Shown in pieces: positions 63,468-63,780 of a DNA stretch of 64,000 nt. The DNA is taken from positions 2,225 through 66,224 of the forward strand of contig CANEEJ010000004.1 in the NCBI GenBank assembly GCA_947426525.1, given 5' to 3'. The number at the start of each line of letters is the position of its first letter. Positions within the stretch are counted from its first letter, which is position 1. Below the pieces are notes generated by a model that saw only the letters and a list, made by a program, of their open reading frames with translations, had not been told where the DNA came from and did not search any database. Origin of the DNA: an uncultured Clostridium sp. (lineage in GTDB: Bacteria > Bacillota > Clostridia > TANB77 > CAG-508). The position numbers and the translations under genes are program-made.

Positions 63468-63780
63468 TGGCTCCTCGTGTTGGACTCGAACCAACGACCT
63501 ATCGGTTACTGCACCACACTAATTTTCATTAGCATTATGATAGTTTCATCATAATTTGTAGTCTGGACTTTATCTTTACCATATCTTTCGACTTAGGTAG
63601 GTGGTGTAAAGTCTCTACACACAGCTTTCGCCTTGCTCGGTATTGTCTTCAGCCTAACCTGTTAAGAGTTTCACCGACTTAGCCACCTTTTCATCTATAA
63701 GTTTCCTTATAGAGCTGCTAACTCTTTAGTCTTGCGACTTGCTCGACAGCCGAGCGCTCTACCAACTGAGCTAACGAGGA
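63468..63780 (-). tRNA. tRNA-Asn (GUU) interrupted by an intron in the anticodon loop
   Basis: Exons 63780-63746 and 63508-63468 join to a canonical 76-nt cloverleaf with loop CUGUUAA. Confidence 0.85.
63509..63745 (-). ncRNA. group I intron (IC3-like, 237 nt, no ORF)
   Basis: A U.G wobble at the 5' splice site pairs with the guide GCAGCU (63713-18). The adjacent GUUA pairs with the 3' exon UAAC. Terminal G is present, along with GAAA-capped hairpins and a GUGUAGAGACU...CCUAAG...UAUGG core. Confidence 0.8.

Follow-up and report, generated by a model that had tools for sequence, protein, structure and literature searches.

Four textbook cases of group I introns in bacterial transfer RNA (tRNA) genes are recognized, namely Leu.3Ug, Arg.5Ug, fMet.2Ug and Ile2.5Ug (Williams, doi 10.1101/2020.01.27.920355). 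In this preprint, 80,413 bacterial genomes were screened with a low threshold for the Rfam model RF00028 combined with exon mapping, resulting in 21 classes, and its seed alignment holds an intron designated Pam37.Asn.4Ug (Williams, bioRxiv 2020, doi 10.1101/2020.01.27.920355). The present work concerns a split tRNA-Asn(GUU) gene in DNA of an uncultured Clostridium sp. (assembly GCA_947426525.1, contig CANEEJ010000004.1); the whole stretch of 64,000 nucleotides (nt) is referred to as the window, and the coordinates of the split gene, its intron and its flanking elements are on the minus strand. A preliminary description of this DNA had proposed a group I self-splicing intron within the anticodon loop of the tRNA and had pointed out that an Asn(GUU) host is not among the textbook cases. 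This holds true, but the class Asn.4Ug is already present in the seed alignment of Williams. The intron is accordingly not the first of its class, but a member of a recorded one, which shares its host tRNA and site of insertion. Judging from sequence comparison, the insert is very likely a functional, self-splicing group I intron of the IC3-like Azoarcus type at U35/U36, which contains no open reading frame (ORF). That the intron is real, conserved and active is considered almost certain.

Comparison with described introns

Apart from Williams 2020, literature searches revealed no other description of a bacterial Asn intron. As given in the seed alignment of that work, Pam37.Asn.4Ug shares with the window intron the tRNA-Asn GUU, the site after the fourth anticodon-loop nucleotide (CUGU/UAA), U-1 and the terminal G (omega-G). 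The layout of the 5' part is also the same, comprising a hairpin, followed by UAGCAGCC, which is a perfect guide for GGCUGU, and a GNRA-capped hairpin. In contrast, Pam37.Asn.4Ug has a P7.1/P7.2-type core insert (GCAGAGACUA...AGCGCCCGA) and AUGAGAUAGUCC, whereas the window intron has GUAGAGACUU and AAGAUAAAGUCC. A global alignment to the 13 published seeds gave no clear nearest relative, and the similarity to Pam37.Asn.4Ug was no higher than that to introns in other tRNAs. Based on this comparison with the seeds, the window intron may therefore represent a separate intron lineage at the Asn.4Ug site.

The intron of the Azoarcus tRNA-Ile(CAU), an IC3 intron (seed Aol6.Ile2.5Ug), resembles the window intron in being small, ORF-less and located in the anticodon loop. 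Both comprise a GAAA loop on P2, the receptor motif CCUAAG...UAUGG at the same place in P8, a GAAA-capped P9, GUGUAGAGACU in J6/7-P7 and AGUCCAG in the 3' strand of P7. The Azoarcus-like core of the preliminary description was borne out by the comparison of 52 related genomes (see below). Differences are found in the tRNA, the site (5Ug vs 4Ug), the GC-rich composition of the Azoarcus intron, its lack of a hairpin in the P1 loop, its single P9 hairpin and J8/7 (AAGGCAUAGUCC in Azoarcus vs AAGAUAAAGUCC in the window). The helix inventory fits the IC3 type (single P2, no P2.1, no P5abc extension), with P1a and the forked P9/P9a as extras. The GAAA loop L2, the 11-nt receptor of P8 and the GAAA loop L9a are present, the tertiary contacts L2-P8 and L9-P5 being predicted, and the intron is a candidate member of the IC3 subgroup.

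The introns of the cyanobacterial and plastid tRNA-Leu(UAA) and of tRNA-fMet have the general family and mechanism in common with the window intron and are covered by the profile that matches it (E=2e-20; see below). They differ in their tRNAs and sites (Leu.3Ug, fMet.2Ug), in the phyla in which they occur, in J8/7 (AAGGGAUAGUCC) and in a P8 without the 11-nt receptor.

The split gene and its spliced product

Joining of the two exons (Table 1) results in a 76-nt tRNA with a canonical cloverleaf and encoded CCA, which was called tRNA-Asn(gtt) by ARAGORN on the joined sequence. The exons and the anticodon GUU, as put forward in the preliminary description, were thus confirmed base for base. The predicted spliced junction reads GGCUGU/UAACCG, i.e. 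GCGCUCGGCUGU joined to UAACCGAUAGG, and the acceptor stem of the lineage is UCCUCGU...ACGAGGA. The intron accordingly lies between anticodon-loop nucleotides 4 and 5 (CUGU/UAA). Further elements of the preliminary description were found as given there, namely the 237-nt insert following U35 and ending in G, the guide at intron nt 24-33, the two GAAA-capped hairpins, the quoted core strings, the adjacent 5S ribosomal RNA (rRNA) gene and the absence of an ORF. No ORF of more than 45 amino acids touches the intron, and no maturase-like ORF was found in or adjacent to it. In the unjoined locus, neither ARAGORN with default settings nor Rfam at the gathering threshold calls a tRNA, and a second tRNA-Asn was not found by ARAGORN in the 64-kb window.

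Occurrence in related genomes and covariation

A genome collection was scanned with a pattern that combines the Asn-specific guide TTAGCAGC with the core strings GTAGAGACT and AAGATAWAGTCC. The scan resulted in 52 loci in 52 species-representative assemblies, all of uncultured Clostridia and mostly from gut or rumen, including Clostridium sp. CAG:389, Clostridium sp. 27_14 and metagenome-assembled genomes (MAGs) from goat, rabbit, mouse and human. The survey of relatives suggested in the preliminary description thus revealed the same split gene in 52 species-level genomes, by which the group I intron at U35/U36 with its P1, U.G wobble, P10 and omega-G is well supported. All 52 loci show a common layout comprising an exon 1 ending with GGCTGT, an intron of 212-245 nt ending with G, an exon 2 starting with TAACCG and an encoded CCA. 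The identity of the introns to that of the window amounts to 77-96%, with the highest values for a goat omasum MAG (L130, 95.8%) and Clostridium sp. CAG:389 (94.9%). ARAGORN called tRNA-Asn(gtt) for the joined exons of all relatives that were scored (38/38).

The structure with helices P1 to P9a and P10 as well as the acceptor, D and T arms of the tRNA was drawn on the window sequence and counted on an alignment of 52 sequences (A1). In this structure 98.9% of the cells are paired, compared to 33-41% when the partners are slid by 1-3 columns. Compensatory changes on both sides were observed in 38 of 92 pairs, compared to 1-10 in the slid controls, and none of 500 shuffles reached the observed values. 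These changes are distributed over P1a (3/4 pairs), P2 (5/7), P3 (2/6), P5/P5a (5/7), P6 (3/5), P8 (3/6), P9 (6/8) and P9a (3/6), together with the outer pair of P7. RNAalifold, which is independent of the drawn structure, recovered P1 with the U.G pair, P2 to P6 and the P8 and P9 helices with compensatory changes in 34 of 87 pairs. The acceptor stem, with one strand in each exon, showed both-side changes at 4 of 7 pairs, the variants including UCCUCGU/ACGAGGA, UCCCCAA/UUGGGGA and UCUCCGU/ACGGAGA. In the T stem, such changes were seen at 3 of 5.

U-1, omega-G, P1, P10, P4, P7 and J8/7 are essentially invariant among the relatives. The U.G pair at the 5' splice site was present in 48 of 48 distinct sequences, in which P1 and P10 do not change except for the outermost G.U of P1. 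The invariance of P1, P10, P4 and most of P7 fits catalytic or targeting roles of these elements.

Family profile and RF00028

The family membership of the intron was assessed with an nhmmer profile built from a MAFFT re-alignment of the 13 published bacterial tRNA and transfer-messenger RNA group I intron seeds (Williams 2020), which is not the covariance model of the author and contains no sequence from this Clostridia clade. With all filters off, the sole match in the 64-kb window was located at 63720-63555(-), with 67.2 bits and E=2.2e-20. Folding of the pre-tRNA gave a z of -3.5, better than 100 of 100 shuffles, and the minimum-energy fold already holds P1a, P2, P4, P5, P6, P8, P9 and P9a.

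The search with RF00028 gave a mixed result. A permissive local scan of 63380-63960 (581 nt) resulted in a full-length match at 63729-63548(-) with 35.0 bits and E=2.9e-7, in which P3, P4, P5, P6, the AGACU of P7 and AAGAUAAAGUC of J8/7-P7 are aligned. The gathering cut-off as given by the tool is 50 bits, and no match was obtained at this threshold. The absence of an RF00028 hit, named in the preliminary description as evidence against the intron, thus applies formally at the gathering threshold, but is outweighed by the sub-threshold match and the other evidence. According to Williams (bioRxiv 2020, doi 10.1101/2020.01.27.920355), none of the 12 RF00028 seeds used were bacterial and a threshold of 18-20 bits was applied in that work. 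Because of these remarks, the low score is read as a limit of the model and does not count against membership. Since a permissive scan of 55 kb from 18 relatives resulted in no intron match, this model alone is unusable for surveying the clade.

Some points weigh against the interpretation as an active group I intron. The RF00028 score stays below the gathering threshold, with 35 vs 50 bits in the local scan and no match in the whole-window scan, and the match vanishes in larger searches (the whole window and the loci of 28 relatives). Splicing is predicted here from the comparison of sequences, and the tertiary contacts and the promoter are predicted by analogy. P1, P10 and P4 are constant throughout, as is most of P7, so that the covariation speaks neither for nor against them. 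Furthermore, drawing the structure on the window sequence inflates the percentage of paired cells relative to the slid controls, the compensatory counts being less affected.

Helices and motifs of the intron

The coordinates of all elements are summarized in Table 1.

Table 1. Features of the split tRNA-Asn(GUU) gene, its intron and its surroundings in the window, and intact tRNA-Asn genes in relatives (coordinates of the respective loci)
Feature	Position	Strand	Remarks
Promoter-like TTGAAA-17 nt-TATAAT	63940-63968	(-)	about 30 nt upstream of 5S; 11/12 consensus positions
5S rRNA gene	63909-63792	(-)	11 nt upstream of tRNA; RF00001, 78.8 bits, full length
tRNA-Asn exon 1	63780-63746	(-)	35 nt, tRNA nt 1-35, TCCTCGTTAGCTCAGTTGGTAGAGCGCTCGGCTGT; acceptor 5' strand, D arm, 5' anticodon stem, C32-U33-G34-U35
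P1 5' strand	63746-63751	(-)	final 5-6 nt of exon 1
Group I intron (very likely)	63745-63509	(-)	237 nt, ORF-less; RF00028 35 bits; nhmmer E=2.2e-20; covariation
P1a	63728-63739	(-)	hairpin AGUC-GCAA-GACU in P1 loop, intron nt 7-18
Internal guide sequence GUUA-GCAGCU	63713-63722	(-)	intron nt 24-33, GUUAGCAGCU
P2	63695-63712	(-)	hairpin CUAUAAG-GAAA-CUUAUAG; 5/7 pairs compensatory, GAAA loop invariant
P3 5' strand AGGUGG	63683-63688	(-)	partner 63599-63604
P4-P5-P5a-P6 domain	63620-63677	(-)	intron nt 69-126; P4 invariant
P7 5' strand G(A)GACUU within GUAGAGACUU	63609-63615	(-)	partner 63565-63570; aligns to Rfam consensus AGACU
P3 3' strand CCACCU	63599-63604	(-)	P3/P7 pseudoknot typical of group I introns
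P8	63578-63598	(-)	hairpin ACCUAAGUC-GAAA-GAUAUGGU with 11-nt GAAA-tetraloop receptor motif CCUAAG...UAUGG
J8/7 and P7 3' strand AAAGAUA-AAGUCC	63565-63577	(-)	matches Rfam consensus AAGAUAUAGUC; invariant in relatives
P9 domain	63513-63562	(-)	closing helix ACUAC/GUGGU around P9 (8 base pairs, variable loop) and P9a (GCUAAU-GAAA-AUUAGU)
omega-G	63509	(-)	last intron nucleotide; G before exon 2 in 52/52 relatives
tRNA-Asn exon 2	63508-63468	(-)	41 nt, U36 to encoded CCA, TAACCGATAGGTCGTTGGTTCGAGTCCAACACGAGGAGCCA
Terminator-like hairpin UAGCAGAUAA-GAAA-UUAUCUGUUA followed by U7	63433-63463	(-)	read from sequence
Intact tRNA-Asn paralogue	L127:1949-2024
Intact tRNA-Asn paralogue	L144:2099-2174
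Intact tRNA-Asn paralogue	L154:1897-1972

P1 is formed by GCAGC(U) of the guide and (G)GCUGU of exon 1, with U35.G28 as the splice-site wobble, and was predicted by RNAalifold together with this wobble unaided. The adjacent GUUA of the guide pairs with UAAC of exon 2 to form the invariant P10. As read from the sequence, G30, G31 and C39 of the tRNA take part in P1 and P10, which are thus in competition with the two bottom pairs of the anticodon stem.

P1a divides the introns into two size classes. It is present in 37 long introns (228-245 nt) of the 52-sequence alignment (38 of the 53 found) and missing in 15 short ones of about 215 nt, which are otherwise alike; the window intron belongs to the long class. 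The intron termini (63740-63745 and 63509-63514; A1 columns 36-41 and 296-301) differ jointly between the classes, with xxAGCA at the start and GUGCAG at the end of long introns, and UGAAUG and GUAAAG, respectively, in short ones. A pairing of the intron ends via G4-C235 and C5-G234 would be possible, but is unproven because only a single change at class level is available.

For P3, 100% of the cells are paired and the both-side changes are from G-C to A-U. In P7, which contains a bulged A and is the helix that binds guanosine, the only variation is one double change of the outer pair from U-A to A-U. The basal pair of P8 alternates between A-U and G-C, and its inner pairs show compensatory changes. 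The G.U pair of the P8 receptor (window 63583/63592; intron nt 154/163; A1 columns 210/223) is variable, occurring as G.U, A-U, U-A and, in 8 sequences, as A.C, so that a strictly canonical receptor is not kept throughout the clade. The GAAA loop L9a is kept in 51 of 52 sequences.

Intron-less alleles and paralogues

Metagenomes were scanned for the unsplit junction in combination with the terminator of the clade, which resulted in three loci. One of them (L174) represents a complete intron-less unit of 5S, tRNA-Asn and terminator, in which the tRNA has the same sequence as that of L127-type genes after splicing. The other two (L173, L175) begin inside the tRNA and run uninterrupted through the junction.

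Furthermore, an intact tRNA-Asn was found 1.5-2 kb downstream of the split gene in L127, L144 and L154 (Table 1). The paralogues of L127 and L154 differ from the spliced product only by the compensatory change from G31-C39 to A31-U39, and that of L144 carries A31-U39 together with one more compensatory change in the acceptor stem. The change at 31-39 lies inside the P1/P10 target, which is altered from GGCUGU/UAAC to GACUGU/UAAU. These paralogues could be intron-resistant alleles or simply divergent copies. The preliminary description had assumed that the maturation of the tRNA depends on splicing. This stands for the gene copy in the window, but does not extend beyond it. In L127, L144 and L154, a further tRNA-Asn gene, which is intact, lies no more than 2 kb away.

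A far-reaching interpretation would be that the split gene is the only tRNA-Asn in the organism of the window and in most of the 52 species. Decoding of AAU and AAC would then wholly require a guanosine-dependent ribozyme in a 5S-tRNA unit with its own promoter, and the A31-U39 paralogues would be intron-resistant alleles. This interpretation is regarded as unlikely.

Genomic setting

All relatives examined with sufficient upstream flank have the 5S gene immediately before the split tRNA. In L125, L130, L138, L142, L150 and L172, the end of the 23S gene and the 5S are 160-190 nt apart, corresponding to an unusually long spacer. The 90 nt of the window upstream of the 5S are homologous to this 23S-5S spacer of the relatives, so that the window probably ends about 100 nt short of the 23S gene. 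The link to an rRNA operon, as assumed previously, is thus right in view of the order 23S-5S-tRNA in the relatives and the homologous spacer in the window; an orphan 5S was rejected on the same grounds. Three short-intron loci (L145, L146, L155) contain the 5S-tRNA unit with no 23S in the about 3.9-5.3 kb of upstream flank, and the 5S is detached from the 23S in the intron-less L174 as well.

TTGAAA or TTGCAA, followed by 17 nt and TATAAT, was found at the place equivalent to the promoter-like site of the window, about 30-45 nt upstream of the 5S, in about 30 of the 35 relatives whose flank was long enough. The pair of 5S and tRNA-Asn may form a separate transcription unit with its own promoter. 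The terminator-like element after the tRNA recurs in many relatives and at all three loci without the intron; its hairpin was not flagged by a consensus scan because it comprises only two G-C pairs.

Past the terminator, about 100-150 nt downstream of the tRNA, many relatives (including L128, L129, L140, L147, L149, L154, L158, L161, L167 and L170) contain a small conserved ORF starting approximately with ATGATAAAAATATGTGAAATATGTAAT...AAATTTGAAAC, a Cys-x2-Cys-like start. This ORF is absent at the corresponding position of the window, where a gene for a metallo-beta-lactamase-fold protein (62519-63325) is located instead. Apart from this, the window comprises a prophage-like block at about 24000-57300 with genes for the large terminase (42646-44031), portal (40969-42633), tape measure (31007-33679) and tail fibre proteins (26900-30027). 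A tyrosine integrase gene (55759-57051, plus strand) adjoins a tRNA-Ser(GGA) gene (57178-57268, minus strand), which is probably the attachment site of the prophage.

Related introns in phage tRNA genes

The broad core pattern GTAGAGACT...AAGATAWAGTCC matched at least 120 loci (L001-L120) in viral contigs (IMG/VR). For about half of the listed viral loci, ARAGORN assigned the intron to a phage tRNA gene, most often tRNA-Leu(UAA) with 39 loci; other hosts among the matches listed are Ser, Arg, Lys, Glu, Tyr-like and further tRNAs. The closest introns outside the Asn clade, among the matches listed, are those in tRNA-Lys(UUU) (L079), tRNA-Glu(UUC) (L083) and at a tRNA-Tyr-like CUGU/A site (L074, L041). 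From P2/P3 to P7 they show 76-77% identity to the window intron over 150-166 nt, share its core strings and carry a similar P2 (UUAUAAG-GAAA-CUUAUAA), but differ in their guides and host tRNAs, the lack of P1a and the shorter P9 regions. The Asn-specific guide pattern gave no match in the viral collection.

Alternative explanations

Beside an active intron, the locus could represent a tRNA-Asn pseudogene with a decaying or inactive intron remnant, the work being done by an intact tRNA-Asn elsewhere. The RF00028 score below the gathering threshold would agree with this, as would the intact copies 1.5-2 kb away in L127, L144 and L154, where the split copy is not strictly needed. A pseudogene would, however, gather uncompensated changes and indels in the core, whereas both exons with the encoded CCA, U-1, omega-G and the complete catalytic core have been retained in 52 species, and compensatory changes are seen in the intron helices as well as in the intron-spanning acceptor stem. 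Since the compensatory changes in the acceptor and T stems indicate selection on the spliced tRNA, by which a pseudogene is ruled out, this explanation is considered very improbable. Even less can be said for an element of another kind, i.e. an archaeal-type bulge-helix-bulge intron, a fragment of a group II intron or a small mobile insertion. Its only support is the proposal of ARAGORN, with introns allowed, of a tRNA-Phe(aaa) with a 221-nt intron, which contains G.A and G.U mismatches and an implausible anticodon and was rejected for the split at U35/U36, by which a perfect tRNA-Asn is obtained. Bulge-helix-bulge tRNA introns are usually found at 37/38, in contrast to the insertion at 35/36 with junctions held in P1 and P10 of the ribozyme fold. 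The local Rfam scan matched no group II intron and no riboswitch-like or other family or extra domain in the insert, which has neither terminal repeats nor an ORF, and a group I topology with its P3/P7 pseudoknot agrees with the covariation. Another element is thus effectively refuted and its probability negligible. An interpretation as a homing-endonuclease element was rejected as well.

A different question is whether a genuine ribozyme is more than a neutral passenger, either by needing a protein or cofactor in vivo or by a rate-limiting, regulated splicing, e.g. via the guanosine nucleotide pool, that controls the supply of tRNA-Asn. Several observations point in this direction, namely the fixation of the intron next to the 5S in many species, where the promoter-like site and the terminator are conserved as well, the extra module P1a kept with compensatory changes in the long class, and the competition of P1 and P10 with the anticodon stem. 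On the other hand, introns of the short class do without P1a but are otherwise alike, the Rfam scan revealed no riboswitch-like or extra domain, and the intron has no encoded or adjacent maturase-like ORF. Regulated or cofactor-dependent splicing goes beyond the data and is judged improbable.

Proposed splicing pathway

For the self-splicing group I intron, the following course would be expected. The split gene at the end of the rRNA operon is probably transcribed together with the 5S, either from the operon promoter or from the conserved promoter-like site in the 23S-5S spacer, and transcription would probably be terminated by the conserved hairpin and U-run. Pairing of the guide with the end of exon 1 in P1 would place the U35.G28 wobble at the 5' splice site, and the core from P3 to P8, whose helices are backed by comparison, would fold with the P3/P7 pseudoknot. 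The invariant GAAA loop L2 probably docks into the 11-nt receptor of P8, and the GAAA loop L9a probably docks on the P4-P6 domain, both as in the Azoarcus ribozyme.

The chemistry is assumed to follow the established group I mechanism. Free guanosine or guanosine triphosphate, bound in P7 at the G-C pair beside the bulged A (G(A)GACU/AGUCC), would attack the 5' splice site. Subsequently, GUUA would pair with UAAC of exon 2 in P10 and omega-G would take the place of the cofactor in P7. Attack of the liberated 3'-OH of U35 after omega-G would then ligate the exons, resulting in a normal 76-nt tRNA-Asn that would be end-processed.

Significance

The intron adds a well-supported and widely conserved Firmicutes clade (at least 52 species of gut Clostridia) to a class known only from the list of a preprint. 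Since default tRNA finders and Rfam at the gathering threshold miss the split gene, tRNA-Asn will seem to be missing from the genomes and MAGs of this clade; the tRNAscan-SE 2.0 paper likewise states that the program is not designed for detecting group I introns. The missed tRNA affects the tRNA counts used for MAG quality as well as the inference of codon usage, and intron-aware tools are needed. As a ribozyme, the intron with its 212-245 nt, the optional hairpin in the P1 loop and the rich natural covariation would be a convenient AT-rich counterpart to the Azoarcus ribozyme.

The loci with and without intron, the paralogues with a variant target site and the phage relatives, the closest among the matches listed, offer material on the movement of introns between tRNA genes that share CUGU. 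The interest would rise if these genomes turned out to have no tRNA-Asn gene other than the split one. In this unlikely case, the supply of tRNA-Asn would be tied to the guanine-nucleotide pool and the growth rate; the codons concerned, AAU and AAC, are very frequent ones in a genome of about 30% G+C.

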